IMG/VR virus record: IMGVR_UViG_3300042197_000966
Span: 12,226-76,225 of that record
Length of the DNA stretch: 64,000 bases
Origin: a virus
Direction: 5' to 3' (one strand)
Positions 1,329 through 30,449 of the stretch are shown here, piece by piece. Each line of letters starts with the position of its first letter. Position 1 is the stretch's first letter. The translations under genes and the position numbers were made by a program. Under the pieces are notes generated by a model. The model worked only from the letters and a program-made list of their open reading frames with translations. It was not told the DNA's origin and made no database searches.

Positions 1329-1345
1329 TTTATATTTTACTCCGC

Positions 1346-1351
1346 TAAATA
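1346..1351 (+). promoter_or_regulatory. T4-type late promoter core (TAAATA)
   Basis: CTAAATA in the intergenic gap about 35 nt upstream of the 2698-aa gene. Confidence 0.7.
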
Positions 1352-1385
1352 TTAACGACTAGATGTTTGTATTTGGCGGAGTACG

Positions 1386-4300: not shown

Positions 4301-7300
4301 TACAAATATCAAATATTATTTCCGTAGAGATTTTGTAACTACTGCATCTTCAAGCGGTGGAACAATTACATTTGCAGCTCAATTGCCTTATGGAACTCAA
4401 AGATTTGCTGCATTCACAGAGAATAATTTTATTATTACCGTTTTAGATAAGGGAGATGCCTCTGATATTTCAAACGGAGATATAATCTATGTTAATGAAG
4501 ATTCCGTAGAGATTTCTTCAGCAACTGATACATCAAGTGGTCTAACATCTGGTAGTATCAGTCTACAATTACCATCAACATATTTTGGAAGTATTCCCAC
4601 AAATGGAACATTCCCAAAATTAAAATTAACTGCTACTTTGGAAGTAAGCAACGCAAAACCAAGATTAAAGACAGCAATCAAAAATAAAAGAATTATTGTA
4701 AATTCTTCTGGAGATAGAGTTCTTCCTTTTAGAGGAACAGATTATGATAATGAAGCTGTAAATATTTTATCTTATTCGGATGCTTTTAAATTAAGATACG
4801 TTTATGAGGGAACTAGCACCCAACCACCAGAGGCAGATAGTGCTGGAAATCTTATTTCTGGAACTGATGTAACATCAAAGTTTACATTTGATAATGGACA
4901 AAGAGATACCATTTACGATGTTTCTAGGATTGTATTAAAACCAGGATTTGAACCAACTACTGGTCAACTATTAATTGCGTTTGATTATTTTGAACATTCG
5001 CAAGGAGATTTCTGTACGATTGATAGTTACTTACATGAGGCTGGTGTCGAAGAAGATGAAATTCCAACATTTAATTCTTCAGTTCATGGAAATCTTGAAC
5101 TAAAAAATGTTCTAGATTTTAGACCAAAAGTTGATGTAGATGCTATTATTGCAGGATTTCAGGATACATCTTCTCTTGCAATTACTACTGGTCAATTTTC
5201 TGGTCCTGGATCTGTAATTGCTGCTACACCAGCAGCAGATCAAGGAATAGAATATACATTCTCATTTAGTCAAGTTCAATATCTCGATAGAATTGATGGC
5301 ATTTTCTTGAACAAAAAAGGAGAATTTTTTGTGAAGGAAGGAAATTCATCATTAAATCCTTCTAAACCAGATACAATAGATGATGCTGTTCCTCTGTTCT
5401 ATGTTTATATTCCTGCATATACAAAAACAAGTAAAGATGTAAGGATTACTCCAGTAGATAATCGTAGATATACGATGCGTGATATTGGTAAGCTAGAAAA
5501 GCGTATTGAAAGACTTGAATATTATACTACTTTAAGTATTTTAGAGCAGCAAGCATTGAATATGCAAGTCAAGGATGAGGTTGGTTTAGATAGATTTAAG
5601 AGTGGATTTTTTGTTGATAATTTTGAATCTCATAAAGTTGGAAACCTAACATCCTTAGATTATAGATGCGCTATTGATACTCAGCAATCAGTTTTGCGTC
5701 CTCAATCTAAAGAAGATTGTGTTCTCTTAAAAGAAGTGAATACTAGAGAAGATCAAAGATCGGTATCTGGTTATAAAAAATCTGGTGATATTATCACATT
5801 ACCATATACTGACTTAAAACTTTTTGGAAATGAGTTTGCATCAAAAACAATAAATCCAAATCCTTTCGTTGTTATTCAATATGTTGGGGATGTTGATGTT
5901 TCTCCAAATATTGATCATTGGTATGACCAGAATATCGATCCAGTTGTTGTCGATACAAATACAAGTTTGTTTAATATTTTCTTAGCAAAAGATGATTCTA
6001 AGGAAAGTTTTTCTGGATTATATAATTCATTTATTGTCAATTGGGTTGGCACTTCTCCAGCATTTACAACTATTAATTCGCTTGGAGAAATCAATACTCA
6101 ACAAGCAACATCTACAGTAACATCGGCATCAATTTCTAGTTCTTCAAATATCAGTCCAAGAAATAATGATATTGGAAAAGGTGTTCAAACAAAATCTGTA
6201 AATGGAAATCTTGTCTCAACAGCACTATCATTTTTTGCAAGAAGTGTTCCTGTGAAATTTGTTGTTAGAAGAATGAAGCCAAATACTACTATTAATGTAT
6301 TTTTAGAAGGAAGAAATATTAATCGTTGGGTTAATCCTGATCTTAGATTTACTGGTGTTGCTGGGAATTCTCTTTCATCATTTAATGGAACTGTTACAAC
6401 AGATGAAAATGGAAATGCTAGTGGATTGATTTTAGTTCCTGCTGGAGTTCCACCAAGAGAAAATGCTACTTGGACTGGCGATGTAGCTACCGTTGATTAT
6501 GATACATCGGGAGCAGCGATACGCTTGACAACTGGTGTTCTTACTTTCAGATTTACTTCTAGTCCAGTAGATGCATCTAAGGACAGTGTAGATACTTATG
6601 CGGAAGTAAAATATTATGCTACTGGAATTTTACCAGAAAATCCATCAAGTATTGTTTCAACAAAACCATCTTACTTTAAATCAAATGAAGGGGTTCAAAT
6701 TATTGATAACAATACAGATAACCCACTAAGACCAAATCCACTTGCTCAAACATTTAAAATTGAAAATTATGACGGTGGTTTATTTGCCACTGGAGTTGAT
6801 CTATTTTTCTCCAAGAAGAGTAGTAATATTCCATTCAAAGTATACATTACAGATGTTGTCTCTGGGAAACCAGCAAAAAATATTGTTCCTGGATCAGAAA
6901 AAACTTTAAATCCAAATACGTATTTGAAGTGCTACTCCAATGGAAATATAAGTGTTACTATCGGTGAATATGTAACTGGAACCAGTTCTTCAGCAAGTGG
7001 TCCTATTTTAAAAATATATGATAAAAATGGAGTTGAATTAGTAGCATCAACTGCTGGAAAATATTCATTAACAAATGAGCAAGTTTATACTGTTGTTTTA
7101 GGCAACCATAATGGTAAGTCTTTCAAACAAAATGAAGATCTTTTAATTCCATCCGTAACTCTCGCAAATGCTACAGATGGCACTCAATTAAAACTAACTA
7201 TTGCAAAAGATAGCGGAAAAGTTTCAGATATTAAAATTAAAAATACAGGTCAAAATTATGACAGTGCAATCTTAACAATCGAAAGTCCACAACTTCCTGG

Positions 7301-9482: not shown

Positions 9483-9498
9483 TTTTTAATTTCCGCGT

Positions 9499-9705
9499 AT
9501 GGATTATATAAAAGTTGCTGGTCATGATGGTCTAGTGAGAGATGAAAATACAGGTGCCATCTTGAATTTGGATGATTCTGCTATAGAAGCAAGAAGAAAA
9601 TCAAAACACTTAAGTTCCGCATTGGAAGACATAAATATGTTGAAGAATGAAATCTCTGAGATCAAATCACTATTACGAGAGTTATTAAGAAATGGCAATT
9701 CTTAG
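9499..9705 (+). CDS. Small conserved protein with C-terminal coiled coil
   Basis: [20 protein letters not shown] then heptad-like [19 protein letters not shown]; typical position after the VrlC-like gene. Confidence 0.8.
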
Positions 9706-12700
9706 ATCCGTTGCTAAAACAGATACCTTTGAATCTCAGAGGCAAAAAATTAATTTAATAGCGGCAGACTTATACGACGTACAAACTTCTGTTGGAGAAG
9801 GCGCGTTTAGTATGAGTGATGGAACTCTCCAATCTCCAGCACTATATTTTACAAATGCTAACGATGTTGGTTTATATAGAAGATCATCAAAAGAACTATC
9901 AATAGTTTCTGACGGAAATGCTGTAGCTTCTTTTACTTCTACATATCTAACTTCATTGCAACCATTTAGAACTTTATTATCATCAGTACAAACTGGAAGT
10001 GGTGGCACTACTGTATCAGCAGTTGGTTCTGGATATAATCTAGGAACAAATATAAAAATTCCATTAACTGGTGGCAGTGGTTCTGGTGCAGTAGCAACGA
10101 TTACCACTAGCAATAGTGGAAATATTACGAATGCTGGAAGTTCATACGCTGGTGGTGTATATACTAACGTTCCATTAACTGGCGGCACTGGAACAGGTGC
10201 GTTGGCATCTATTACAGTACTGGCATGGGCAGGTAGTGTAAGTGCTCCTGGAACTGGTGGAACCGCTGGTACTTATAATAATGTTACTTTAACAAACGTC
10301 AGTGGTTCTGGTTCTGGTGCTACTGCCAACATATTAGTTGGTGGTGCTGGAGGAGTAGCTACAGTAACTGTTGTTAACAAAGGATCTGGATATAAACAAG
10401 GAGACGTTTTAACAGCGTCTTCTGGAAGTATTGGCGGAACAACAGGATTTCAATTTACTTTATCTGGTGGCGGAGAAGTTTCTAATGTTTTAATAACAAC
10501 TGGTGGAACTGGTTATGCTGTTGGAAATGTACTATCCGCTTCAAATGCTAATTTGGGAAATGGCAGTCCAGCTGGATCTGGTTTTCAATATACACTAACT
10601 TCTATTGGTGCTGTCACTGCAGTTAGTGTCACAAATGGTGGTGACAATTATGTTATTGGAGATATATTGAGTTTTGATAGTAATTTAATTGCTCCAGTAA
10701 CAACATATCATGTGAAGATGGAGTTGTGCCAATTAGTAGAATTTTCATCTCCAAATCCAACTACAGGTTTTAATGTTGGTGACACTTTAACATACAATGG
10801 ACAAACTTTTAATATTGTAAAAAGATTTACATCTGGATCAAATATTACTGCTGTTACTGTTCAAGTAACAGCATTTGATCAATTGAGTTTTTCTAATGGT
10901 CTTACTGCAACTTCTTCTGGAGGTGGAGGATCTCCTACAGTATCCGCCATTACAACAGCATTAAATTACTTTTTTTCATCAACTGGACCCGCTGGAACTT
11001 ATACAAATATTCCAGATTTCACGTTTCAAAAAAATGTTCGTTATGTTTTTGAGCAATCAGATCCATCAAATATTGGACACCCATTAAGATTTAGTACAAC
11101 AAGAGATGGATTTCATACAGTACTTAATTTATTTCCAACTACGTATGGAGTAAAATACGAAGGAGATGAGGTAGATTATAATTATACATCAACATCTTTA
11201 TCTATAGTTCCAAATGATAGCACCCCAACAACTCTTTATTACTACTGCGATGCAGGAACTCCTGGTGGAGCATCTCACTTAGATGAAGGTGGTTTTAATA
11301 ATCGTGAAGGAGTAATTACAGTAAGTGGAACTGGAGCAATTTCTGGTAGCGGAGCACAGATTACTGTTTCCGATATTGATGTTAGTTCAAATATAATTTT
11401 AGAAAAAGACGGCACTGCTACTCTTGGCAATACTACGGCATCAAATATTACAGCATCTGGCAATTTAAATATTAGTGGTATATCAACATTAAATAATGAT
11501 CTGATTATTGGTTCAAACACTTTCACCGTAGATGCTCAAACGGGAGATACTGTTGTAGATGGAGATCTTACCATAAATGGAGAATTTTCAATAACAACAA
11601 GTGCCAATTTGGCAAATACATTATACATAGATGCCATCAATAATAGAGTTGGTATTAATAAAGATCCGTCAATTACGCCACTAACAGAAGCATTTGAAAT
11701 TACAGGAGGTATTGTAAATAGTGGAGATACTTATCTTTCATCAGATTTAAATAAAATAGTACGAATTGGAGATACGACTAATCTTTCTGGAACATCAAGA
11801 TTACAAGTTGACGGATCAGTTCTCTCTACTGGTGGTTATCAAGCAACTTCATCCGATGATATTAAAACTCCAGTATACGCAATAAGAGGCAATACAAGAT
11901 ATGGACTTGCATTTAATACTGGATCGTTAGCACTATCTGTTGCAGTAGGAAGTGGAGAAGCATTAAAATTTACAAATCTACTGACGACATCATATAGAAG
12001 TTTAAACTTTGATTATAAAACTATCACATCAACATCAATAACTGGTGGATCTGGATATACAGATGGTTCATACTCTGGAATACAACCATCAGGAGGATCT
12101 GGAACTGGTTTGACGTTAAACGCAACTGTTTCTGGAAACGCATTAACTTCAGTTACTGTAACCGATAATGGTATTGGTTATGAAGTTGGCGATGTATTGG
12201 TAATTCCTCTCCCTGGAACTTTAGGAGCAACTGGAGCAACACTAACAATAAACAACATAACAACGGCAACAACAATTTCTACTGATGTTGCAACTGGTGT
12301 TATCACAGCAAGTGCTCTCAACACAACAGGATCTGGAATTACTGTTGATAATAAACTCAATATTGATGGTACTACTATTACATCAACTCAAGATGAAGAT
12401 ATCACAATTGCTCCAGGAGCATCTTCTAGACTTCTTTCAGTTACTGGAACTGGTGGTGTAAAACTTCCAGTTGGAAATTCCACAAACAGACCATCTGCTA
12501 CAACAGCTGGCATCATTAGATATAATACACAAACCTCACAGTATGAAGGATCAAATGGTGTTAATTTTATTTCCCTAGGTGGTGTCAGAGATGTTGATGG
12601 AAATACTTATATTATTGCTGAAGAAACTGTAGGTGCGAATGATAATATTTTATATTTCTTCAACGATGGATCTAATTCAGCAAGATTGTCTAGAACAGAA

Positions 12701-20100: not shown

Positions 20101-22954
20101 TTCAATTACTGCGGCGCCAGTTAATGCTGGAATTGCTCCAGGAACAACGGTTACTTCTGTAACATTAAATGCTGGTTTATACACTGTCAATATCAATAAT
20201 CCAACAACTGCAAATATTCCTGTTGGAACAGTTATTGAATTTGGGAGAGCAGCATCTCCATTAGTTATTGATACTCCTGTCGCTCTTACAAATTACATTG
20301 CGAGCGTTATCATTGTTAATAGTGGAACAGGATATACAAATGGAACTTATACCAATGTAACTCTCCAAGGAGGAGATGGTACTGGATGTAAAGCTGATAT
20401 TGTTGTTTCTGGAAATGAAATCATTTCAGTTACAGTTACCGATGGTGGAACTGGTTATATTTCTGACTTCCTTGTTACTGGATTTTCGACAAGTCTTGGT
20501 GCTGGAAACTCGTTAGTTCTTTCCGCAAAAATTAATACAGTTCTTAAGTATTACGGTAATACTACTTTTGATGTCTCAAAGGTTTCAGATTCTGCAACTG
20601 ATAGTTATTCCACAGTCGGTGCAGCAAGATTTTTAAGATATCAAAACACAACTGATTTGCAGGCAGGATTTAACATCAATGCTGACGGTAATGGTTCTAT
20701 TAGTCTTAAAACTGGGGCTTTAAGTGGATTGAATGCCGATAAATTGGATGGAGAACATGGTATTTTCTATCTAACTGGTTCAAACTTCGTTGATGGTAGT
20801 ATCACCCCATCCAAGTTACTTGGTGGTCAAGAATATAGTATTAATATCAGCGGTATTGCAAGATCTGCAAATAGATTGAATTCCACTGATGAAGGATCGA
20901 ATGATCCACTACCAATTAATTCTTCTGAAGGTGTAGTTGCACAATTAAGAAACAATTCTGCAAACGGATTGAATGATGGTGGTACAAGAAACCTAGTTCT
21001 AAATCTCAGAAATGGTATTGATGCTACTTATGGTGGCGCAAGGCAATTAGCACTTACGGATAACAATAATCTTTGGATCCGTGGTTCTGGAACGGCACTA
21101 ACACAATGGAGCACTTGGTATAAAGTATGGACATCTGGAAATGATGCTTCTGCTGGTCAAGGTTCTGGTCCAGATGCTTTTAGATTGAACAATAAGGTAC
21201 AAGAATATTATAACACTGCTTATAATATCAATTATGGAACTCTATCAGATAATAGAATTCCATATTATCAAACTGCAAAAGCATTTGACGATAATTTAAC
21301 TATTCGTTGGCAGAAAACACAAGTTGTATATGAATTTTATATTCCTGGTGTTCTATTAACTGGTGGAAGTGGAACATATCAAATTGGAAATACTCTGAAG
21401 TTATTCCAATCAAACGGTGTTGAAAATGGTCAAGTTGTTGTTCTTGCAGTAACAAATAATTCAGCAACTGCAACAGATACAAGTCTTCGTTGGTCAATAA
21501 TCAGAGGAAGATTAACGAGTGGTAGCATTAATGTTGGTGGAAATCCTTCCATCAAGATTGGATTGGATATTTCAAATAGCTCTGTATTTACTGATTATAC
21601 TGGTAATACTGAGAATACAATTGAAGTTGCTAAATTGCAATCTACATCTGGAACTGCTCTCCTAAAATTAGGCAGAACAGACGGTGTTGCTTCAAACCCA
21701 GCTATTCATTTTAACAGTAGTGCAACTACAGCAACAAACTACCACGTTGCAATGATTGCTTCTGGTGGAACTGCAACTGATGGTAGTGGAAGTCTTAATA
21801 TTATTGCTGGAACAAATAATGCTGTAACTATTAACAACAATGCTATTTGGAACGCTGGCAATATATCATTTAATACTGGTTTTACTGGAGCTAATTATAA
21901 CACTGGAGCAAATAGCACTGGTGTTATTAGAGATGCTAGCGGCAATGCTGCTTTCAACGGAATTACATTAGGAGCATCTGGAACTGGTGTTCTAACTGGA
22001 TCTGCTTCTCTCAACGTATTGAAGGCAGGCGATACGATGACAGGTCAGTTAAAGATTGCCTTCAATAGTGGTCTAGGTATTAGTGAAACTGGTGGAACTG
22101 GAGCAAGACTGACGATTACTTCATCTGCTTCTGGTTCTATTCTAAATGTTGTTGATAACTCAGCACTAATCTTCCAAACCGACAGTGGCGTAGAGCAAGG
22201 TAGATTTAGGAATAATGCTGCTGGTGGTGGATTGCTACTAACTACAAATCAAGCTGGTGGTGTTCCACTAACTCTCAATAGACAATGGGATGGTGGTAGA
22301 TTACAATTCATTTACAATAGTGATGCCACCACCAGAGGTGAAATTGGCATGACCTATGCTGGTGCCAATGGCAACATGTATTTGTGGATGGGAAGCAACC
22401 TAAACTCGACTGGAAGCGGTCACACAAATGCTACGCAAGGCAATTCGGCGTATTCTTCTTGGGTAACATATCACCATTCAAACTCTGATTACTATCAAGT
22501 TGGCAGAATTGCTAGTGGAACTTATACATCTGCTTTACATATCAATGGTAGCAGACAAGTTGGTATTAACACCACAACCAATACAACTTATAACCTACAA
22601 GTTAATGGTTCCTTCGCTGCTACTACCAAGTCATTCCGCATTTCTCACCCAACCAAAGAGAACCATGACCTTGTTTATGGTTCGTTGGAAGGACCAGAGC
22701 ATGGCGTATATGTTCGTGGCAAGTCATCTGACGTTATTGAGTTACCTGATTACTGGGTTGCTCTTGTCGATGAAAACACCATCACCGTTCAACTCACTCC
22801 AATCGGCAATCATATGTCATGGGTAGAGAAGATTGAAGATAATAAGATCCTTATTGGTGGTGGCGAGGCATTCTACTTCGTTCAGGCAATGCGTAAGGAT
22901 ATCGAGAAGTTAGAGGTTGAAGTTGAGTTGCCTGTTGAGGAGGAGCAAGAGTGA
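14111..22954 (+). CDS. Giant multidomain tail fibre/baseplate-associated protein, 2947 aa
   Basis: YVSEQIGDDANDGRS...PVRTIKRA beta-helix cap motif; SPYIQNASVIS; GGGYSSTPTVTIS repeats; LNADKLDG fibre motif; C-terminal KSFRISHP...SLEGPEHGVYVRG domain. Confidence 0.8.
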   Translation: MSLEFNADKQYLKGTKPYVLGTSEFTIRAGTGASEKEVMRWQLDATQQLTRVGINRNGQQVEKITLTNTGGGYSSTPTVTISAPNLATGRQATASALINLGTVAAIIVDDPGNGYTSTPTVTISGGAGNGATATATLNSIEYELDVNGAIRTSTSIISDTARVINLDFVNLTTADGTFRAPYLKLYANNTGTSWLASTVVSKNTFRYFGDNIYRVNQDGTTGTNAPIHTSGEVANGTTILEHVGYRVNSPSLPHYGITGDGIFPRSITPLQGDRSNKIATTEYVLSLATNDVGGRIYVSEQIGDDANDGRSAVNPVRTIKRACQIATGTVGVRETVIISGGDYVEDNPISIPPDCSIVGDSLRIVNVRPLNGGKHMFKFADKNYITGITFRDRLDSAGNPIQTWDYACAFDDKQRIYYDSNSGGDYGRDFPIGYQIFGRQEYRITFSENTGNAQIAVGETIWGETNNANATVTNVFYNATTGASAYDTGYIDVVLNQNSNQLSTGDRFRYGGPAPSLGTFTQPWLANTSFPANVYLWTTGTSGNPGRVYLTTAAVTTGAATPSHTSGTVSNLLYIRDRLQFTSSTITSIRPEGEIVSKGEDLISQLPITRIDASVATYNTYGGVVIYTNPLVGASNVHNFKENEEIEIFGLPTSSPDLSWLNGKQRVYKIIEDADARSRRIVIAKEGNRVGFTQSNYAPLSAYVRSYSYYFTLSLLNSPYKFPITDYVSRRYQDACNLIRNNLEFIKDETYQIIEDEFSPNFTISSIVPTTGTGLDLGKVIVRITTSVPHGFYVSDNVTIKKTTFASGLLNGNYIVTNRVSSTVLEVQYTGTVATLGLTSGTTYNNAAIGTSSFIQRGFVIPSETKCRRDIGHFVNAIIMDLEYGGNYHVVEAAKRYRNNGVLGYVGNELAYTVRSLEVARRLCIYAMRNWRLEDGKYSQPTYTPKFSSLSRYFDLTVTEDTSGATTNGFTCSDVASAITTLAYLYTDVLCNKTVTNSPTVGTMEDAGYLIMANADFIASEASEFAYAQFPVVAASLTDDQKRKCKRDIRYILSGLTRDLIGGGNSGIVTAAESYFTGNTLSGIPSNELAATRSAFSRARDLSIQAIRNWSNGTVTTRTATTATYNSTSGVLTVTFPTPTTPVTTAHKLAFKERALTFSCASDGGGNLASPQPTDRNYGKSLSISNVTTGGGNQTVTVNVGAAGTAAGVAHTFVSALANGVIIIYDPVTPTYETNITRVEDWNIALYGSNPLCANVASAITTEFTTLDNILGGTVLPGATTKTYGTLYDPTVTYPTGVMIDNDGYYITPRGRWDDLPIIEASPYIQNASVISFKGGGGCEVDGSKVKQPNCPFPGLEADGSATYPNQGKSMVAAQFTIVSFGGTGYKIVKDGYTQLVSVFVLFCKDGVLAESGGYVSITNAATNFGIYALRAVGYRENAYSFDTGIITNVSETVTGRTILTVGSLGRKPLEHYVLKIDGYTNQGESIEYFIEKVTSASVGPIFTATFEVNAAMLLTRTSDGALFNSPLSGAEFTGKTIKLHRPSIVNSSGHTWEFAGAGTNYKALPENGGKKIEAYEQVSENYGRVYTSGTDELGDFKVGYFAKIENRTGNITFTGTVSISEVEFLKLKGGDVVVTGFTSDNTLGGAASSNSLLPTQKAVKDYITTNLGTYINKPYSTNAVPRALVELTDSGKISIDQIPALRPFSVYTVADQAERLKLEGALAGDIAIEQDTSTSYILNNDLTSLFLGFAVNQALQFTINNLFVGTPGGGQIQAKEYRQGVVYQINITNGGSGYSSAPSVTFSAPQQGGGVTATAVATVANGQVTTITITETGGLKGGRGYTSAPTITIASPGGAGTTATATCLIESRLYGNITNNIKIVDIDTIQSSNGTPITVDINRVVNTSAFTASNWVSLSSNQVAADQITSGVIATTRLASNSGAANSTTFLRGDQTYAPVIQSIKGVETRYFVKTSNQTNSGGQQLFFTEAQAATILKGHSITAAPVNAGIAPGTTVTSVTLNAGLYTVNINNPTTANIPVGTVIEFGRAASPLVIDTPVALTNYIASVIIVNSGTGYTNGTYTNVTLQGGDGTGCKADIVVSGNEIISVTVTDGGTGYISDFLVTGFSTSLGAGNSLVLSAKINTVLKYYGNTTFDVSKVSDSATDSYSTVGAARFLRYQNTTDLQAGFNINADGNGSISLKTGALSGLNADKLDGEHGIFYLTGSNFVDGSITPSKLLGGQEYSINISGIARSANRLNSTDEGSNDPLPINSSEGVVAQLRNNSANGLNDGGTRNLVLNLRNGIDATYGGARQLALTDNNNLWIRGSGTALTQWSTWYKVWTSGNDASAGQGSGPDAFRLNNKVQEYYNTAYNINYGTLSDNRIPYYQTAKAFDDNLTIRWQKTQVVYEFYIPGVLLTGGSGTYQIGNTLKLFQSNGVENGQVVVLAVTNNSATATDTSLRWSIIRGRLTSGSINVGGNPSIKIGLDISNSSVFTDYTGNTENTIEVAKLQSTSGTALLKLGRTDGVASNPAIHFNSSATTATNYHVAMIASGGTATDGSGSLNIIAGTNNAVTINNNAIWNAGNISFNTGFTGANYNTGANSTGVIRDASGNAAFNGITLGASGTGVLTGSASLNVLKAGDTMTGQLKIAFNSGLGISETGGTGARLTITSSASGSILNVVDNSALIFQTDSGVEQGRFRNNAAGGGLLLTTNQAGGVPLTLNRQWDGGRLQFIYNSDATTRGEIGMTYAGANGNMYLWMGSNLNSTGSGHTNATQGNSAYSSWVTYHHSNSDYYQVGRIASGTYTSALHINGSRQVGINTTTNTTYNLQVNGSFAATTKSFRISHPTKENHDLVYGSLEGPEHGVYVRGKSSDVIELPDYWVALVDENTITVQLTPIGNHMSWVEKIEDNKILIGGGEAFYFVQAMRKDIEKLEVEVELPVEEEQE

Positions 22955-22965
22955 TGTTACTGACT

Positions 22966-22973
22966 TATAAATA
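22966..22973 (+). promoter_or_regulatory. Perfect T4 late promoter TATAAATA
   Basis: Exact match 22 nt upstream of ATG 22996. Confidence 0.85.
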
Positions 22974-22995
22974 CTCAATAAAAGGCGTATAACAA

Positions 22996-24936
22996 ATGGC
23001 GAATTCTGATAAGGACATCCTTATAACGCCTAATATTGGTCAGGCGGCACTACCAGAAATTAAATTTGTTGGAACTGGAAACAGTCCTCGTTATATACGA
23101 GTAAATGATGATAATAGCCTTGCGTTCCTGAACAACTCTGGAACGGAAAGATTTTCTATTAATGAAGATTTAGTAAGAACCAGTTTATCTGCCAGTGGTA
23201 ACTATAGAGTTAGAAACAGTTCTGGAACAACATTATTTAATGTAACTAATAGTACAAATGCTATTGAAATAGGTGGTGCTGGAACTGGTATCGCAATGGT
23301 TGGTGGAACAACTACAGCAACCTCTCCAAAACTAGCAATTGTCCAAGCAAGTGCTGGTTCAAGATATTCTCTACAAATTCAAACCACTGGCGGTATTGCT
23401 GATGGACAGTATGATGGTATTGGATTTGTTCAAGGTGCTGCTGGTGCAACACCTTTGGGTGGTATTCGTTGTGAATTTAGAAACAGTGGTAGTCCAGATT
23501 TTGGATGGTATACAAGGAGTGGCGGAAGCACTGAGAGTATAAAATTAAAATTATGGAACAGTGGTAACTTATCAATTGGAACTGCAGATCAAACAGAATA
23601 TACTAGATTAAGTGTTCTAGGAGGTTCTGGTATTACAATTAGACCAGATACTTCATCTGCAAATAATCGTCATATCTATTTTAGACAAGCAGCTAATAAT
23701 AATGGATTTGTCATAAATCAAGATGATGCTTCTGTTGGTATGCTCTTCTTCAGAGCAATCAATAATGGATCAGAAACAAATCCTCTATTAACATTAGATA
23801 GACCAAATCAGAGAGTTGGTGTTGGAAATTTTAGCACAAGTTCTAGACCAGGATTTACACTAGATGTAAATGGAGATATTAATACTACTGGTCAATTTAG
23901 AAGAAATGGAGTAATTTTTAATCCACTTCCCGCGCAAAGTGCATCAACAATTGGTGCTGCATTAAGATCAGATGGAACTAATGCATTCTGGGATATTGGC
24001 GGTGGTGGAAGCGGCGGAGGAACATCTGCTCTTCCATACGCCGCAGAAGACAGATATAGAGTTGGTTTCCAAATCACTCGCGGTTATGCAATGGCGGGAT
24101 ATAAAGATAGTACATCATATAAAAATGTTTGTTCTATCAATCATGCCAATAATACTTTAACAAATCATGGAGATCTTTTAACAAATGGTCAAGGTTATTG
24201 TGCTGGAGCACAAAATCTTTCCATGTTTGCATATGTTATGATCGCCGTAAATGGTGTTGGTGGAACTGGATCAACATGTTCTAAAATTAATATGAACACC
24301 AATGCAAATGCTGGTACTACCTCCATTAATAATAATAGATCTGCAACAAGTATAATGAGAAGAGATTTCAGATATGCATATGTATATGGAGGTGGAGATT
24401 CTAGACCAGATAGATTTAATTTAAGTAATGATACTTCAGCGTTAGCTCCAAATGGCAATCCATCTGGAGATGAAAACAATCCAGCTGGAGGATATGGTGC
24501 TACTTATGGATGGTCTAAGAAGAATGGTGGGTATGCATATTCTTGGGCAAATGAGACATATGCTGCTTGGCCAAATAATCCTGGAACTGATGGATCCAAT
24601 AAAACTATGAACGCTAGACATGGTTATAATTATTGGAATACAGGAGGAGGATATAGGACATCAGCAAATTTCTCCAAGAGAAGTTCATTTACTGGATCTG
24701 AAGCTACTCAAGTTGGTAAGTTTGAATGTGGAGAAGAAACATTCCACACTGGTATGAATAGAGGTTATATGTGTGGTATGTATGATGGAGCACAGAAAAA
24801 CACTGGAGCAGTTTTAAATTATGCTGCTGAAACATTTACAGCAGATGCAAATATAAACAGAGTAGGACCACCTGGATCGGCATCTGGAGCTGGTGCTGAA
24901 TTTGGCACGGTTCTAGCAGGTTACGACGGAGTATAA
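22996..24936 (+). CDS. Fibre/adhesin-like protein with a C-terminal Gly/Tyr-rich repeat (propeller-like) domain
   Basis: N-terminal MANSDKDILITPN; fibre motif VGVG...PGFTLDVNGDIN; repeats RGYAMAGY, FAYVM, YAYVYGG, RGYMCGMYDG. Confidence 0.7.
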   Translation: MANSDKDILITPNIGQAALPEIKFVGTGNSPRYIRVNDDNSLAFLNNSGTERFSINEDLVRTSLSASGNYRVRNSSGTTLFNVTNSTNAIEIGGAGTGIAMVGGTTTATSPKLAIVQASAGSRYSLQIQTTGGIADGQYDGIGFVQGAAGATPLGGIRCEFRNSGSPDFGWYTRSGGSTESIKLKLWNSGNLSIGTADQTEYTRLSVLGGSGITIRPDTSSANNRHIYFRQAANNNGFVINQDDASVGMLFFRAINNGSETNPLLTLDRPNQRVGVGNFSTSSRPGFTLDVNGDINTTGQFRRNGVIFNPLPAQSASTIGAALRSDGTNAFWDIGGGGSGGGTSALPYAAEDRYRVGFQITRGYAMAGYKDSTSYKNVCSINHANNTLTNHGDLLTNGQGYCAGAQNLSMFAYVMIAVNGVGGTGSTCSKINMNTNANAGTTSINNNRSATSIMRRDFRYAYVYGGGDSRPDRFNLSNDTSALAPNGNPSGDENNPAGGYGATYGWSKKNGGYAYSWANETYAAWPNNPGTDGSNKTMNARHGYNYWNTGGGYRTSANFSKRSSFTGSEATQVGKFECGEETFHTGMNRGYMCGMYDGAQKNTGAVLNYAAETFTADANINRVGPPGSASGAGAEFGTVLAGYDGV

Positions 24937-24938
24937 AA

Positions 24939-25691
24939 ATGAGAAAGTATTATCTAACAAATTCAAAAGAAGTAGCAAAATTATTTTCGTTTAAACCTCA
25001 CGGCGAAATTTTAAATTGGCAGTTTTTCTCGGTAAATCAAATCGATAGTGAAAGAGTGAAAGAATTAGCTCCTCGTCATATTGAAGTAGAGAAAGACATT
25101 GCTGTCTGGGGAATGAGATCTTGGGGAGAAACCAGAGATGAAGTAACTGTATATAATACAGACATTGAAATTGTAAGTGAATTTGAGGGATTTGAAATCA
25201 TTGCCACTGATCCAGAAAATTCACAAGGAAAAGTAAAAATTCCATTCACAGATAAAAGAAAAGATCTAGTAATATCGGCAATGAAATTAGTTGCCAAGGT
25301 TATGATTGAAGAAGAGTATGATAATAAATATAGAAGATATCTTTCAAAAACTTCATTTTTAGAGAGAGAATGCTGGAAGTATCAACTCGAAGATGTATCG
25401 TTTAGAGATACCCTCGCAGAGTTAAAAGGAAAAGAAAAAGAAGAATTTGAAAATGTTGTAATTGCAAATAGTATTAGTTATGAAGACTATGTAAAAGGTT
25501 TATACATAGAGTGTCAGGCATTAAAGCAAGAATTTTACAATTGCGAAAATATTTCGGAATTGAGTATTCTATTTGAAGATAAATTTAATCTTCCAATGCA
25601 ATCACATCTTGCTATCAAACTTGGTAGAGAGATTGTTAATGCCGATGAACCAAATACAAGAACAAATGTTGGAATTGGTTTGAATTTTTAA
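24939..25691 (+). CDS. Hypothetical protein, possible fibre assembly chaperone
   Basis: Starts 2 nt after the fibre gene; acidic and helical, with an ERECWKYQ motif reminiscent of tail-fibre assembly proteins. Confidence 0.6.
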   Translation: MRKYYLTNSKEVAKLFSFKPHGEILNWQFFSVNQIDSERVKELAPRHIEVEKDIAVWGMRSWGETRDEVTVYNTDIEIVSEFEGFEIIATDPENSQGKVKIPFTDKRKDLVISAMKLVAKVMIEEEYDNKYRRYLSKTSFLERECWKYQLEDVSFRDTLAELKGKEKEEFENVVIANSISYEDYVKGLYIECQALKQEFYNCENISELSILFEDKFNLPMQSHLAIKLGREIVNADEPNTRTNVGIGLNF

Positions 25692-25708
25692 GTTTATTTT
25701 AAATTGCC

Positions 25709-26506
25709 ATGTCAGATGAAAAAAAATTGGATGTAGAAACTATAAAAAATATTGCTCGTAGATGGGCGTCAGGAATGTCTGATGAGCAATGTGATATGTA
25801 TGTTATTCATTCTCAAGTTACAAAAGATAGACAAGTAAAACAGTGTCTATTGGAAATCGAAAATAGATGCCACAATCTAGCAAAACTAGATATTGAAAAG
25901 AGAAGACATGATATAAACTATAAAAAACTTCAAGAAAAATTGGGCACAGAAAAAGATCCATATGAAAAAGATCTTCTTCAACTTGAATTGGATAGCATGG
26001 ATTTAGATTATGATGTTTTTAATAGAAGAAAAATTACTCAAGAAAAAGAAATTCAATCATTTTTTAAATGGTTAATTGAACAAGGATTTACAGCAGAAGA
26101 ATTGGAGAAAAGATTGGAATATGATCCAGAAGAAGAAAGAAAATACTGGATTGCCAGAATGGGCAAACAAGCAGCTATGGATGTTGTATTCCAAGGAAGG
26201 ATTGGAACTGGCAATCTAGACTCTATTGCTATGATGAAGGAGCAGGATCAGCAGGCAATTTTAGAAATTGCAATGCAGTATTCTGCATTATATAACGTTA
26301 GCGTCAATAAAATTCAACAGAAACTTGTTCCATATATTCAAGCATTAGAAGAAAGTTCTACAGGAGCATTACCAACTTTTCATGGAATTGATGAAAACTT
26401 AGAAATAGGTTTGTTGAGTGAATTAAAAACTATTAAAGGTGAATTGAATGGAACCAAATCTTCATCCCCAAGTCTTCAGCTTACCTATAAACCCCAAGCT
26501 TCCTGA
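25709..26506 (+). CDS. Hypothetical coiled-coil protein
   Basis: Long charged helices; EEERKYWIARMGKQAAMD...GRIGTGNLDSI motif. Confidence 0.7.
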   Translation: MSDEKKLDVETIKNIARRWASGMSDEQCDMYVIHSQVTKDRQVKQCLLEIENRCHNLAKLDIEKRRHDINYKKLQEKLGTEKDPYEKDLLQLELDSMDLDYDVFNRRKITQEKEIQSFFKWLIEQGFTAEELEKRLEYDPEEERKYWIARMGKQAAMDVVFQGRIGTGNLDSIAMMKEQDQQAILEIAMQYSALYNVSVNKIQQKLVPYIQALEESSTGALPTFHGIDENLEIGLLSELKTIKGELNGTKSSSPSLQLTYKPQAS

Positions 26507-28151
26507 AGATTTTGTAGATAATATCTTTATTCCATTTTTACAAAAGCATAAAGATTACATTTTTGATTTATATTTTACTTGCAGAATGCCTCCATTTGAG
26601 CAGGATGCTATGGGTGATATTTTCAACAATCCAAAAGATACCACTTTCAGTGCTTTATACATTTCAAATAAAACTGGAATACCACTATCTGCAACATTTA
26701 ATAATATTTTTGTGAGACCAGATCAAGAAAATTTAGATCTATTCATAAAGAATTTTAGATATGTTTATGAGAGAGGTGTAAGAATTGCTACAATTCCACA
26801 CACTTCATGGTTACTTACTGGACAAATACAAAAAGAGTTTCCAAATCTCTTCATAAAGAATACAATTCTGAGAGAAGTTACTAGACCCAACGAAATTGTT
26901 TCTTTAGCAAAAGCAGGATTTCATTATATCAATCTTGATAGAGATTTAATGCGCGATAGAGATCAATTACTTGCTATTAAAGAAGCAAAAGATTATTGCT
27001 CTTCTATTGGCAAACCAGTTAAATTGTCTTTATTAGCAAATGAAAATTGTTGGGGTGGATGTCCCATCATGCCAGAGCATTATCATTATAACAATACAAG
27101 AAAATTAAACAATCCAGAATATTTTGGAGATGCTATAAGTAGAATTTCATGTTCCTCTTGGGATATATTGGATTCTTCATCCTCGTTAAAAGCAGCGATA
27201 TTACCACCATGGAAAGAAGATTGGATTGAATTTTTTAATTTGGGAATTGATGTATTTAAAATGCATGGCAGAGAGACTGCTACCAGATTAAAAGAAAGTA
27301 TGGACATCATTGAAAACTGGGCAAATAATAACGAATATTTGTTTCCAAATTTTGATGAATTTATTCATGATATACACATAGATGATAAACCTATTGATAT
27401 TTGGAGAGAAAAAATTAAAACATGTAAATTTGATTGTTGGAAATGCAACTATTGTGAATCTGTAATCAAATCACGAGTTAGAAAATATGAAAAAGATCAC
27501 CATCCTTATGTTTATCATGTTTTAAAATCTTTCGAAAAATCTGGTAGAAATGAATCTAGTTTTAATCCAGAAAAATATGACATTGAAGGATTAACTTCTG
27601 ATCGAGTAAGACATTTTTTAAATAATCTTTGTTCAATGGATGGAGCAAAATATTTGGAAATAGGATCTTATGCTGGAAGTACATTTTTTGCTGCTACCAT
27701 GAATAACAATGTTCAAGCTTATGCAGTCGATAATTATGTTTGCAATGTTTCTCCTGCTAGATTGGATGTTAAATGGAATGGATATTCAAAACCCAAAAGA
27801 GACTTTTTAAAAAATAGATCAAAATATGAAATAGGAAAATTAATTGATAAGCATGTAAATGCCATCAACCTAATGGATTTGGATAATACAAAAGTCAATA
27901 TCATTTTTTATGATGCTAGTCATGAATATAAAGATCAAAAAAAGGCATTATCTACTCTCCTTCCATTAGCAGAAGATACCTTTATTTTGGTTATTGATGA
28001 CATTAATTTCAAAGATGTGTTAGAATCTGCAAAAGAATTTATATCCGATAATAATTTGACTTCATTATATGAAAAACAATTATTCACCACGGTCTTTGAA
28101 GATTCTAATAGTTGGTGGAATGGATTATTTGTAGCAGTTTTACGAAAATGA
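26448..28151 (+). CDS. U32 peptidase-family Fe-S protein fused to a class I SAM methyltransferase
   Basis: INLDRDLMRD; LLANENCWGGCP; GIDVFKMHGRE (compare U32 GVDSLKIEGR); CKFDCWKCNYC. C-terminal YLEIGSYAGST, IIFYDASH and LVIDD are Methyltransf_24-like. Confidence 0.8.
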   Translation: MEPNLHPQVFSLPINPKLPEDFVDNIFIPFLQKHKDYIFDLYFTCRMPPFEQDAMGDIFNNPKDTTFSALYISNKTGIPLSATFNNIFVRPDQENLDLFIKNFRYVYERGVRIATIPHTSWLLTGQIQKEFPNLFIKNTILREVTRPNEIVSLAKAGFHYINLDRDLMRDRDQLLAIKEAKDYCSSIGKPVKLSLLANENCWGGCPIMPEHYHYNNTRKLNNPEYFGDAISRISCSSWDILDSSSSLKAAILPPWKEDWIEFFNLGIDVFKMHGRETATRLKESMDIIENWANNNEYLFPNFDEFIHDIHIDDKPIDIWREKIKTCKFDCWKCNYCESVIKSRVRKYEKDHHPYVYHVLKSFEKSGRNESSFNPEKYDIEGLTSDRVRHFLNNLCSMDGAKYLEIGSYAGSTFFAATMNNNVQAYAVDNYVCNVSPARLDVKWNGYSKPKRDFLKNRSKYEIGKLIDKHVNAINLMDLDNTKVNIIFYDASHEYKDQKKALSTLLPLAEDTFILVIDDINFKDVLESAKEFISDNNLTSLYEKQLFTTVFEDSNSWWNGLFVAVLRK

Positions 28152-28798
28152 AATTATATGATTTATTTCCAAATCCAATATTTGGAATTGATTATCCAGA
28201 GCACGATAAATTAAAAAAAATTATTCTTCAAATTATGGAAGAGTGCAAAGATGATTTTGAATTTAATGGTCAATCATCTAATTTATCACACTTAAAAAAT
28301 AAATTGAACGAATCAATTTTGCATGAAGAGCAATTAAAAGAATTTAAAGACTGGGTTGAAGAAACATGCTCTGATTATGTTACAGATTGCTTGGGTTATA
28401 ATCTCCAAGAAAAAATGATGGTTACAGATAGTTGGTTAAATAAATGCGACAAAGGAGGATCACAACATCCTCATTATCATTCAAACTCATATGTTTCTGG
28501 AACATATTATGTAAATTTTCAAGATGGTCATGCTCCTTTAATGTTTAACAAAAGATCTGCATTATTATTTCCAAATCATGCATCGATAGTTTTACCAGAG
28601 AATGATAATTTTATAACCAAGTACAATACAGATTCTGCTGTATATCCAGAGGAAGGTGAGTTATACCTTTGGCAATCTCAAATGACGCATAGTGTTCCAG
28701 AAAATGGACTTGATAATCGAATTAGTTTGTCTATGAATTTTATGCCAACTGTTGTAAGCAATACAAGATATGGATTTAGAGTAGAGTATTTATCATGA
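28148..28798 (+). CDS. 2OG-Fe(II) oxygenase, TIGR02466-like
   Basis: SWLN...HPHYHSNSYVSGTYY, MTHSV and RISLSMN motifs; start ATG overlaps the upstream stop (ATGA). Confidence 0.85.
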   Translation: MKLYDLFPNPIFGIDYPEHDKLKKIILQIMEECKDDFEFNGQSSNLSHLKNKLNESILHEEQLKEFKDWVEETCSDYVTDCLGYNLQEKMMVTDSWLNKCDKGGSQHPHYHSNSYVSGTYYVNFQDGHAPLMFNKRSALLFPNHASIVLPENDNFITKYNTDSAVYPEEGELYLWQSQMTHSVPENGLDNRISLSMNFMPTVVSNTRYGFRVEYLS

Positions 28799-29580
28799 TA
28801 GATTTTAATGATATATTGAAACTTTTTCCCCAGGATGTGTGGGATATTGGATTGTTGAAGGGCGTTGAGTATAAAAAAGTATTGAATTCTCCAGTAAAGG
28901 CAGCATGTCATTTTAAAGGTGAAATGCTGACCAACAGATTGCAGGCTCCATATCAGTCAAGTAATACTCTGGTATTTGCTAGAATGTCTGAACATGCTGC
29001 TGACTATTCTTTATATGAAGAAGCAACAAATTACTTATCCGAATACATAAAAGAAAATAAATGTGTTCAGGTATATTTAAATTTTAAAGAGGCGGCTATA
29101 CAATCTGGATTGGGAGTGAGAGCAAAAAATTCATTGATATATAATAAAAAATTTGGATTTCAATGTAAGATATGTGCCTTTACATTTTTAGAAGATCTGA
29201 TTAATGCCCCAGAACCACATATAAACAATGGACAGTTAGATCTTTGTGATGGATGTAATGATTGCATAAAAAATTGTCCAGCTAATGCAATCCATGAAGA
29301 TTTTATTGATGGCAATGCATGTGACACTTTTGTTGGTGTTGGTAATAGTTCCGAACAGTTATCAATTAAATGGTTCTGGTATGAATTGGTAAAACCAGAT
29401 ATATCAAGAGAAGTTGTAGAATCTTGGAATACACTAGAAGATTTTCAAAATATTGTATGGACAAATGGATATGAAATGACACCAAATGGTTTGATGAAAG
29501 ATGGTGAAGTAATTCCAATGCCTCTTTGTAGAGTGTGTCAGCAACAACCAAAATGTAGTAAAGTTCCTATAATGTTATGA
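28795..29580 (+). CDS. QueG/reductive dehalogenase-like double 4Fe-4S protein
   Basis: KEAAIQSGLGVRAKNSLIYNKKFG; CDGCNDCIKNCP; later C...CRVCQQQPKC. Confidence 0.75.
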   Translation: MIDFNDILKLFPQDVWDIGLLKGVEYKKVLNSPVKAACHFKGEMLTNRLQAPYQSSNTLVFARMSEHAADYSLYEEATNYLSEYIKENKCVQVYLNFKEAAIQSGLGVRAKNSLIYNKKFGFQCKICAFTFLEDLINAPEPHINNGQLDLCDGCNDCIKNCPANAIHEDFIDGNACDTFVGVGNSSEQLSIKWFWYELVKPDISREVVESWNTLEDFQNIVWTNGYEMTPNGLMKDGEVIPMPLCRVCQQQPKCSKVPIML

Positions 29581-30197
29581 TTTTAAATGTCGGACCATGG
29601 GAAATTAATCCATGTTTTTCCATGCCAGTATCATCTAAAAACATAGATCCAAGCATTAGTTTTCTTCTTAAAACTATGTGCAAACGTGTTGAATGGATTG
29701 AAGATAATACATATACTGGAGTAAATGGATTTTATTCTAAAGATAGAAATGTTTTAGATTGTGATCAAGAAATTAAAAATGGATTTGTTTCTATATGCAA
29801 GGATTATATTGTTAATGCTCTTTGTTATGATACAGAGATACAGATAACAACTTCTTGGTTTACAAAAACTATAAAGGGAGGACATTGTGTTGATCACACA
29901 CACTGCAATTCTTGGTTTAGTGCAGTTGTCTATTTTGGTGAATATGATGAAAATTCTTCGCCACTAGTATTTTCCACAAATCCTCCACAAATAATGGTTG
30001 GATCAAAAAATTCAAATTTCTTAAACTCTTATAATTTGACAATAGAACCAATAAAGAATAAAATAATTATATTTCCTAGTAATCTGCGGCATAAAGTTAT
30101 GCCGCACAAATCAGATATTCCAAGATATTCACTGTCTTTTAATATCATGCCACTAGGATTAGTTGGAGAAGGAGATTCTTCTTATCAATATAAATAA
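29577..30197 (+). CDS. 2OG-Fe(II) oxygenase, TIGR02466-like
   Basis: SWFT...DHTHCNSWFSAVVY, IFPSNLRHKV and RYSLSFN motifs. Confidence 0.85.
   Translation: MILNVGPWEINPCFSMPVSSKNIDPSISFLLKTMCKRVEWIEDNTYTGVNGFYSKDRNVLDCDQEIKNGFVSICKDYIVNALCYDTEIQITTSWFTKTIKGGHCVDHTHCNSWFSAVVYFGEYDENSSPLVFSTNPPQIMVGSKNSNFLNSYNLTIEPIKNKIIIFPSNLRHKVMPHKSDIPRYSLSFNIMPLGLVGEGDSSYQYK
30189..30196 (+). promoter_or_regulatory. Perfect T4 late promoter TATAAATA
   Basis: Overlaps the end of the oxygenase gene, upstream of the 60-aa ORF. Confidence 0.75.
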
Positions 30198-30224
30198 CAT
30201 TACACACTATCATTTGTGATAACC

Positions 30225-30407
30225 ATGGATACCGCAACACTTAAAAAGAATTTTGAAGAGCAGCTTGCTACTGCAGACAAGCAGATTGCTGAACTAGAAA
30301 CAAATCTTGTTAAAGCAAGAGAATACAAACTCAAGCTTGAAGGTGGTCTAGAAACACTAGGACTTCTGGAACAAGAAGAAGCACCTGCCGAAGAAGCAGC
30401 AGAATAA
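30225..30407 (+). CDS. Small coiled-coil protein
   Basis: MDTATLKKNFEEQL...KLKLEGGLETL; lies between its own late promoter and a terminator. Confidence 0.75.
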   Translation: MDTATLKKNFEEQLATADKQIAELETNLVKAREYKLKLEGGLETLGLLEQEEAPAEEAAE

Positions 30408-30413
30408 TCCCAG

Positions 30414-30449
30414 ATCCCTTCTTACTAAATATGTAAGAAGGGATTTTTT
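30414..30449 (+). terminator. Rho-independent terminator whose loop is a late promoter core
   Basis: ATCCCTTCTTAC-TAAATAT-GTAAGAAGGGAT followed by a T-run. Confidence 0.8.

Follow-up and report, generated by a model that had tools for sequence, protein, structure and literature searches.

The DNA analysed here, a stretch of 64,000 nucleotides (nt; hereafter the window) that forms part of the 76-kb IMG/VR record IMGVR_UViG_3300042197_000966 from a T4-like cyanomyovirus, contains a cassette of seven genes. The first four, which encode a fibre protein ending in a "tip" domain, two phage-specific proteins of 250 and 265 residues and a two-domain enzyme, constitute an old, phage-restricted and late-expressed unit that has been kept through changes of gene order, fusion and splitting, multiplication of the tip gene and duplication. 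We propose, tentatively and by analogy with known enzyme pairs, that this unit is a late module that may mature or decorate the fibre tip in two steps, a hydroxylation and then an O-methylation. The module is widespread and uncharacterised, being found in at least 126 isolate records and, across oceans and lakes, in over 100 distinct metagenomic loci, and is built from variants of known enzyme kinds. The remaining three genes, encoding two 2-oxoglutarate (2OG)-Fe(II) oxygenases and a QueG-like iron-sulfur (Fe-S) protein, are variable add-ons of a few clades and lie outside the conserved unit; the first-pass annotation of the window, in contrast, had read all seven genes as one tailoring pathway.

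Specifically, the first gene (positions 22996-24936 of the window, + strand) encodes a fibre protein of 646 residues, of which the N-terminal ~290 residues are shaft-like and the C-terminal ~330-350 residues make up the tip domain. It is followed on the same strand by the genes for a helper family protein of 250 residues (24939-25691; phrog_1604, T4-GC 352), for an all-helical putative partner protein of 265 residues (25709-26506; phrog_1409, T4-GC 353) and for a bifunctional enzyme of 567 residues (26448-28151; phrog_1458, T4-GC 354). The first two genes are separated by 2 nt and the second and third by 17 nt, and the third and fourth overlap by 59 nt.

The conservation of this unit was surveyed in some 140 contigs from viruses, together with 126 genomes of isolates. 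Loci were fetched through the QueG-like protein (11 loci), the 567-residue protein (32) and two distant homologues of its U32-like domain (100), and all open reading frames (ORFs) of the fetched loci were scanned with a profile of each component, yielding 103 distinct U32-like genes; upstream counts refer to the 70 loci with at least 4.5 kb of upstream DNA, and downstream counts to 79 loci within 2.5 kb (locus numbers carry the prefix L). Upstream of the U32-like gene, a 265-family gene is present in all 70 loci, a 250-family gene in 65 of the 70 and a tip gene in 66, with a further four in which the tip forms the end of a fibre of more than 2000 residues. Among the 103 U32-like genes, the methyltransferase is fused in 85, encoded by a separate adjacent gene in 15 and cut by the contig end in three; the separate gene overlaps the end of the U32-like gene in L049-L068, L121, L122 and L136. 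Gene order is not fixed, the 250 gene preceding the 265 gene or following it, and one to three tandem tip genes are found per module; three paralogous tip genes of ~370 residues stand before one set of helper and enzyme genes in L049-L068, L098-L103, L127-L143 and others. Additionally, L035-L037 carry two complete tip/265/enzyme modules in tandem (in L036 at 934-5623 and 7742-11681), whose copies share 52% (enzyme), 45% (tip) and 35% (265) identity with each other, and this low identity points to an old duplication or to a second acquisition of the cassette.

In the isolates S-CAM4, P-HM2, P-SSM4, P-RSM1 and Syn33, genes 1-4 are syntenic with T4-GC 351-354, and the downstream genes differ. A search of 50,697 isolate phage records found the enzyme in 126 and the 265 family likewise in 126, with the same breakdown by organism, and the tip in 117. 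Co-occurrence of the fibre, 250, 265 and U32-methyltransferase genes, which the first-pass annotation had suggested be looked for in a neighbourhood survey, therefore extends more widely than it had predicted. No relatives came out of two scans of 185,579 prokaryote genomes; these scans relied on a few exact peptide patterns and are weak evidence of absence. Three of the 126 isolate records are Ralstonia jumbo phages; in one of these, RP12, a 265-family gene (ORF140; hmm E 5e-30, Foldseek E 1e-8) lies directly 5' of a stand-alone U32-like gene. Two further features of that RP12 locus (L047, ORF138-ORF143) are a DUF401/CitMHS-like membrane transporter gene 3' of the pair and a collagen-repeat protein, ORF143, encoded ~2 kb upstream of it. 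In P-SSM4, the gene PSSM4_038 (L003 9596-10639), located two genes downstream of the module, has a match to the ALK/LTK glycine-rich domain (E 9e-14), which is of polyglycine-type fold.

The tip domain matches phrog_1417 with an E-value of 1.5e-56 over residues 318-644 of the 646-residue protein and corresponds to T4-GC 351, which is labelled "sericin 1 precursor-like"; searches of Pfam and PDB gave no sequence match for it. It terminates fibres of more than 2000 residues in L025 and L038-L041 and elsewhere forms a stand-alone protein of ~335-460 residues. The window protein had been described as a fibre with a propeller-like tip; the propeller finds no Pfam or PDB match and only weak repeat signals: in hhalign comparisons of 55-residue segments with the family profile, off-diagonal E-values reached only 0.002-0.05, and propeller repeats were dropped. 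One ESM-Atlas cluster for the tip (score 0.90) carries Beta-prop_PLL on 10% of its members and is a weak lead only.

For the 250-residue family, no relative was found in PDB or Pfam, and paralogy with the 265 family was dropped at an hhalign probability of 3%. In the AlphaFold2 model of the 265-residue protein (predicted local distance difference test score, pLDDT, 82), residues 39-125 form a long helical hairpin, which is accompanied by a bundle and a disordered tail; 13 residues are invariant among 57 sequences of the family. Structural matches to this model are generic helical hairpins with Z at most 10.4, a profile search found no PDB relative, and the ESM Atlas gave no usable match. A chorismate-mutase-like function as a supplier of prephenate was considered for this protein and dropped, given the generic nature of the hairpin matches and the lack of a PDB relative.

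The 567-residue enzyme is the slowest-evolving part of the module, with a median identity to the window of 45% as compared with 27-29% for the tip, 250 and 265 proteins. Its AlphaFold2 model, built on 69 sequences (pLDDT 92), was compared with 48,161 representative PDB chains. The N-terminal domain (residues ~5-345) is a U32-like triosephosphate isomerase (TIM) barrel with seven invariant cysteines. Among all chains, its top match is the U32 protein Mk0906 (5d88), which aligns with residues 5-281 at Z 16.6 and a root-mean-square deviation of 3.2 Å over 226/247 residues, and the next TIM barrel follows at Z 12.5. In line with this, Foldseek aligns the domain with 5d88 at an E-value of 6e-7 and a template modelling (TM) score of 0.68, and a BFVD match, "Peptidase [Escherichia phage OLB35]", has a TM score of 0.73. 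The U32 proteins characterised so far are Fe-S enzymes that hydroxylate aromatic or heteroaromatic carbons. In the phage enzyme, D53, N85, R165, R169, E199, E210, H211, K271 and R275 are invariant together with the seven cysteines in 99 distinct sequences, and the cysteines probably hold an iron-sulfur cluster or another metal.

The C-terminal domain (residues ~373-567) is a catechol-type class I S-adenosylmethionine (SAM) O-methyltransferase. Pfam recognises in the whole protein only Methyltransf_24 (PF13578; residues 403-519, 31.7 bits against a cut-off of 26.3), and the structural matches of the domain include COMT, CCoAOMT, TomG, SafC, TrmR and MeT1 at Z 15-16 and SpnH at Z 14.7. Eight residues (E404, G406, G410, D428, D489, D517, D518 and N520) show 94-100% conservation across 82-86 sequences; by comparison with the motifs of CCoAOMT, E404, G406 and G410 would be the SAM-binding glycine motif, D428 the acidic residue behind strand 2 and the Asp/Asp/Asn set the metal site. 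Judged from its model and its conserved residues, the enzyme looks active. The earlier designation of this protein as a U32 domain plus a methyltransferase thus holds for the methyltransferase by both Pfam and fold, and for the U32 part by fold but not by Pfam or cysteine motif.

The unit appears to be transcribed late. The octamer TATAAATA, which resembles a T4-type late promoter, lies at 22966-22973 (+ strand), 30 nt 5' of the ATG of the 646-residue fibre gene and within the 41-nt gap behind the gene for a fibre of 2947 residues, and it recurs at 30189-30196 (+ strand), 27 nt 5' of a 63-residue ORF. ORF coordinates, gaps and overlaps confirm the earlier description of seven packed or overlapping genes behind one such octamer, with the next at 30189. 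In the window, TATAAATA is found three times against 4.3 expected, a count not above chance. Support for a promoter comes instead from its conserved position: among 82 related loci, 10 have it no more than 100 nt 5' of their first tip gene, ~13 times the background of 0.0095 per 100 nt, seven of these at exactly -30, and it precedes the enzyme gene in none of 101 cases. We therefore regard TATAAATA at -27 to -30 as a candidate T4-type late promoter whose position is conserved in relatives. In P-HM2, the homologues of genes 1-4 (PHM2_098, 099, 100 and 101; T4-GC 351-354) all fall into late expression clusters in both light and dark (PMC5082946, S2 table), which bears out the late action that had been suggested for the cassette. 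Additionally, in the metatranscriptomes of three lake studies, contigs with mostly 95-100% identity to the window map to the fibre, 250, 265, 567, 63-residue and gp13 genes and span the 646/250 and 265/567 junctions; these contigs are assembled, come without strand or transcript ends and may include carried-over DNA. One of them crosses the promoter (22885-23128), where read-through or library DNA is possible. They leave 28.1-30.2 kb uncovered, from which we draw no inference.

Taken together, we propose that genes 1-4 act on the fibre tip as follows. The N-terminal U32-like barrel would hydroxylate a carbon of the substrate, and the C-terminal cation-dependent O-methyltransferase would then methylate the new hydroxyl, with the 265-residue protein serving as an obligate partner of the enzyme. 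The target, modified during fibre assembly, would be the co-encoded tip protein or a group that it carries. Because the enzyme is always accompanied by its own tip gene or genes, the tip is the most likely target. Two precedents bear on the chemistry: in the yrrM(trmR)-yrrN-yrrO operon of B. subtilis, a COMT-like methyltransferase and two U32 proteins produce mo5U34 (PMC6599085), and in O2-independent ubiquinone biosynthesis, hydroxylation by UbiU/V is followed by O-methylation by UbiG (PMC6747719). By analogy with the TrhP-TrmR and UbiU/V-UbiG pairs, the phage enzyme most likely hydroxylates and then O-methylates, and the hydroxylate-then-methylate logic of the first-pass annotation is consistent with the fold matches and the TrhP/TrmR precedent. 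A more specific form of the proposal, in which the enzyme and its 265-residue partner modify conserved aromatic residues of the receptor-binding tip post-translationally, for example tyrosine to hydroxy- and then methoxy-tyrosine, is conceivable but unlikely.

If aromatic residues are modified in this way, the enzyme would be the first of U32 type to act on a protein. The tip would be the first phage receptor-binding protein to need dedicated redox and methyl tailoring, and the system is spread in marine and freshwater cyanomyophages. If an Fe-S hydroxylase/methyltransferase is required to finish the tip, host recognition would depend on the host's supply of iron-sulfur, SAM and possibly prephenate, and this dependence would concern viruses that rank among the most abundant on Earth; the U32 superfamily would also gain a wider range of substrates. 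In a 2010 listing, the four genes reportedly appear as hypothetical T4-GC 351-354, and they are said to have received no function since, and our literature search found no paper tying a U32-like enzyme to phage fibres.

Several observations weigh against the tip-modification proposal. The Pfam U32 model (PF01136, cut-off 22.4 bits) does not match the N-terminal 391 residues of the enzyme at E ≤ 10 and matches only one of 35 homologues, at an E-value of 0.033; a six-frame search of the record with the U32 model gave no match while control genomes did, and a PDB profile search for U32 by sequence returned nothing usable. The canonical 4Fe-4S cysteine motif of U32 proteins, CX6CX15CX3/4C (PMC6747719), is replaced by C201-X3-C205-X29-C235 and C326-X3-C330-X2-C333-X2-C336. 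With a U32-type fold but neither the Pfam match nor the canonical motif, we regard the domain as U32-like in fold but outside the curated family. On the genetic side, the enzyme and, in a few cases, the QueG-like gene served as bait, so tips without an enzyme would be missed. RP12 lacks a detectable tip, 250-family gene or methyltransferase, which implies that the 265/U32-like pair can work without a recognisable tip gene, and S-ShM2 has ~5.7 kb of other genes between T4-GC 353 and 354. Outside the module, relatives of this methyltransferase domain occur as fusions with glycosyltransferase or sulfotransferase domains, a hint at sugar rather than aromatic substrates. Finally, the RNA libraries behind the metatranscriptome contigs may contain DNA, and we infer cofactor, chemistry and substrate from fold and analogy only.

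Among the alternatives, the one that survives best, possible but in our judgement unlikely, is that the substrate is a sugar or some other non-protein group, such as a tip-borne glycan or a host surface polysaccharide, the enzyme being a sugar O-methyltransferase joined to a carbohydrate- or small-molecule-active TIM barrel. The fusions just mentioned belong here: close relatives of the methyltransferase (P0104 and P0138) are joined to RXYLT1-like, GT2, fucosyltransferase, FkbM and sulfotransferase domains, and BFVD matches include glycosyltransferase-methyltransferase proteins of giant viruses. MeT1 (Z 15.6-16.0) and SpnH (Z 14.7) also score as high as the catechol enzymes. On the other hand, the conserved module contains no glycosyltransferase, the best match of the N-terminal domain is a U32 protein and not a glycosidase or sugar-phosphate barrel, and seven invariant cysteines would be unusual among carbohydrate enzymes.

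Somewhat less probable still is an RNA- or DNA-modifying pair like TrhP/TrmR, which would make a methoxy-pyrimidine in tRNA or rRNA late in infection, with the synteny to the fibre gene inherited and functionally meaningless. To our knowledge, all U32 hydroxylases characterised on macromolecules act on RNA, and TrmR is among the top structural matches of the methyltransferase domain (Z 15.5-15.8). The RP12 pair, which has no tip gene beside it and a tRNA gene 6 kb away, would also fit, as would the operon precedent in B. subtilis (PMC6599085). Against this stand the linkage to the tip, which survives changes of order, fusions and splits, and the divergent second module with a tip of its own, together with late expression alongside structural genes. 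Additionally, the 64-kb window contains no tRNA gene, and Pfam searches detected no RNA-binding domain.

The first-pass reading, in which all seven genes form one pathway that hydroxylates, methylates, reduces and oxygenates a single substrate, we consider very unlikely. All seven ORFs lie on the + strand with the sizes given at first pass. Oxygenase 1 (28148-28798) is encoded in an ORF that is open from TTG 28112; its start is likely ATG 28148, which forms an ATGA with the stop of the enzyme gene, and in L013 the match to this oxygenase begins directly past the enzyme-gene stop. Overlaps of 4 nt each then connect it to the gene for the QueG-like protein of 261 residues (28795-29580) and the latter to the gene for oxygenase 2 (206 residues, 29577-30197). 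This tight packing, and the fact that no strong terminator-like site was found within the cassette, would fit a single pathway, as would the preservation of the full 2OG-QueG-2OG order in the closest clade (L006-L011, L014 and L030; QueG-like proteins 61-86% identical) and the recurrence of 2OG oxygenases beside the module in several lineages, including S-CAM4. However, the slot between the enzyme gene and the 63-residue ORF is empty in the close relatives L023-L026, holds one oxygenase in L029 and an oxygenase plus a QueG-like gene in L013 and L022, and in S-CAM4 is occupied by a DUF6445 protein, a fibrinogen-like protein and a PF13759 oxygenase. Downstream of the module, a 2OG oxygenase is found in 26 of the 79 loci and a QueG-like gene in only six, and both kinds of gene assort independently of it. 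The QueG-like gene has 96 metagenomic relatives and no tblastn match in the 50,697 isolate records, 126 of which carry the module.

Away from the module, the QueG-like gene is located near 2OG oxygenases in L012 and L016 and after nrdA/nrdB in L015. In L016, an unrelated viral contig, the segment 8776-10792 between fibre genes carries a PF13759 oxygenase, a Mom-family (DNA-modification) gene and the QueG-like gene, which hints that the QueG-like protein serves, with an oxygenase, the modification of nucleic acid or of something else. Since the QueG-like gene occurs near oxygenases outside the module, a link between these two is possible and a link to the module is not required; genes 5-7 may act with each other.

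As for the proteins themselves, the identification of two 2OG-Fe(II) oxygenases is upheld: 2OG-FeII_Oxy_5 (PF13759, cut-off 27) matches them at 59.7 and 59.9 bits, and TIGR02466 matches oxygenase 1 at 66.4 bits (cut-off 62.5) and oxygenase 2 at 56.2 bits. Both are ordinary cyanophage PF13759/TIGR02466 proteins, and several 2OG oxygenase genes per cyanomyophage genome have long been known (PMC3037559). The QueG-like designation is justified in part. The 261-residue protein, apparently a short form of the QueG/reductive-dehalogenase superfamily, matches TIGR02486 (E 1.7e-9; 38 bits against a cut-off of 160) and TIGR00276 (E 1.5e-8; 34 bits against a cut-off of 200), with only residues ~96-181 aligned, as well as PceA (8q4h; 8.8e-5), and contains one canonical 4Fe-4S motif, CX2CX2CX3CP, at residues 150-160. 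A second cluster formed by C176 and a C-terminal CX2CX5C is possible. With partial matches far below the curated cut-offs, the protein belongs to the QueG/RdhA superfamily only loosely.

Two observations concern a neighbouring label. PHROG 274 ("DNA endonuclease V") weakly matches oxygenase 2 (29577-30197; E 1.9e-6), and Pfam gave no match at E ≤ 0.01 for the denV-annotated gene directly after T4-GC 354 in P-SSM4 and Syn33 (L003 8689-9198); it may be worth re-examining the label denV in that cyanophage gene cluster.

As improbable as the seven-gene pathway, and last, is the idea that the three downstream proteins of the module are fibre-assembly chaperones only, their enzyme-like domains having lost catalysis: genes immediately 3' of fibre genes often encode chaperones and the long helical hairpin of the 265-residue protein matches prefoldin (Z 9.6-9.7), though generically, but no other part of the module is as conserved as the enzyme, in which the cysteines and polar residues of the barrel are invariant and the motifs for binding SAM and metal are kept.

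The cassette is flanked by giant fibre genes (2698, 1284 and 2947 residues) on one side and by neck genes on the other. All large ORFs of the window are on the + strand, and their products include gp8, neck proteins, gp15, the terminase, the sheath and the gp23 capsid protein, with a gp13 that is 82% identical to its counterpart in Synechococcus phage S-CAM4. The 63-residue ORF (30216-30407, + strand), conserved 5' of the neck gene gp13 in relatives, is 64-83% identical in most related loci that reach downstream of the cassette (76% in S-CAM4) and is the downstream edge of the variable slot. It is followed by an intrinsic-terminator-like hairpin (30412-30446, + strand) with a 14-bp stem and a T-run. 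Across the enzyme and add-on genes (26000-30000), the G+C content is 0.305-0.31, as compared with 0.35-0.40 in the flanking structural genes. A megablast search of the cassette against isolate phages gave no match. Freshwater metagenomes from more than 10 studies, of lakes, watersheds and other sites, contain DNA near-identical to the window, which points to a widespread freshwater relative of the marine cyanomyophages.

Comparison with known systems places the module among several partial parallels. The 261-residue add-on protein aligns with QueG and RdhA around the core at the first 4Fe-4S motif of both, is ~120 residues shorter than QueG and is not linked to queuosine genes. T4 gp37, followed by gp38 and gp57A, resembles the module in that a receptor-end fibre gene precedes small late genes required for the fibre; no relation in sequence or fold was found between the two, and the module includes a conserved two-domain enzyme. 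The best structural match of the U32-like domain, the U32 "peptidase" Mk0906 (PDB 5d88), shares 10% sequence identity with it, and the phage domain adds a C-terminal helical part with a CX3CX2CX2C cluster.

UbiU/UbiV (with UbiT) followed by UbiG offers a closer parallel, in which a U32-type hydroxylation of a phenolic ring precedes O-methylation, as proposed for the phage enzyme. There the U32 enzyme needs an obligate protein partner, a role that the 265-residue family may play in the module; the phage partner is all-helical, whereas that of UbiU/UbiV is a second U32 paralogue or an SCP2 protein. The phage enzyme also differs in lacking CX6CX15CX3/4C and in being encoded among virion genes rather than quinone genes. 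TrhP (YegQ; YrrN/YrrO in B. subtilis) and TrmR (YrrM), which convert tRNA U34 to ho5U and then mo5U, resemble the phage enzyme in combining a U32 fold with a COMT-like cation-dependent O-methyltransferase, and they are encoded together as an operon where the phage counterparts are fused or adjacent. Unlike TrhP/TrmR, the phage enzyme has no Pfam U32 match, a different cysteine pattern and no detectable RNA-binding part; within the searches made, including the pattern scans of the prokaryote genomes, it is found in phages only, and it is constantly linked to a fibre-tip gene and two phage-specific proteins.

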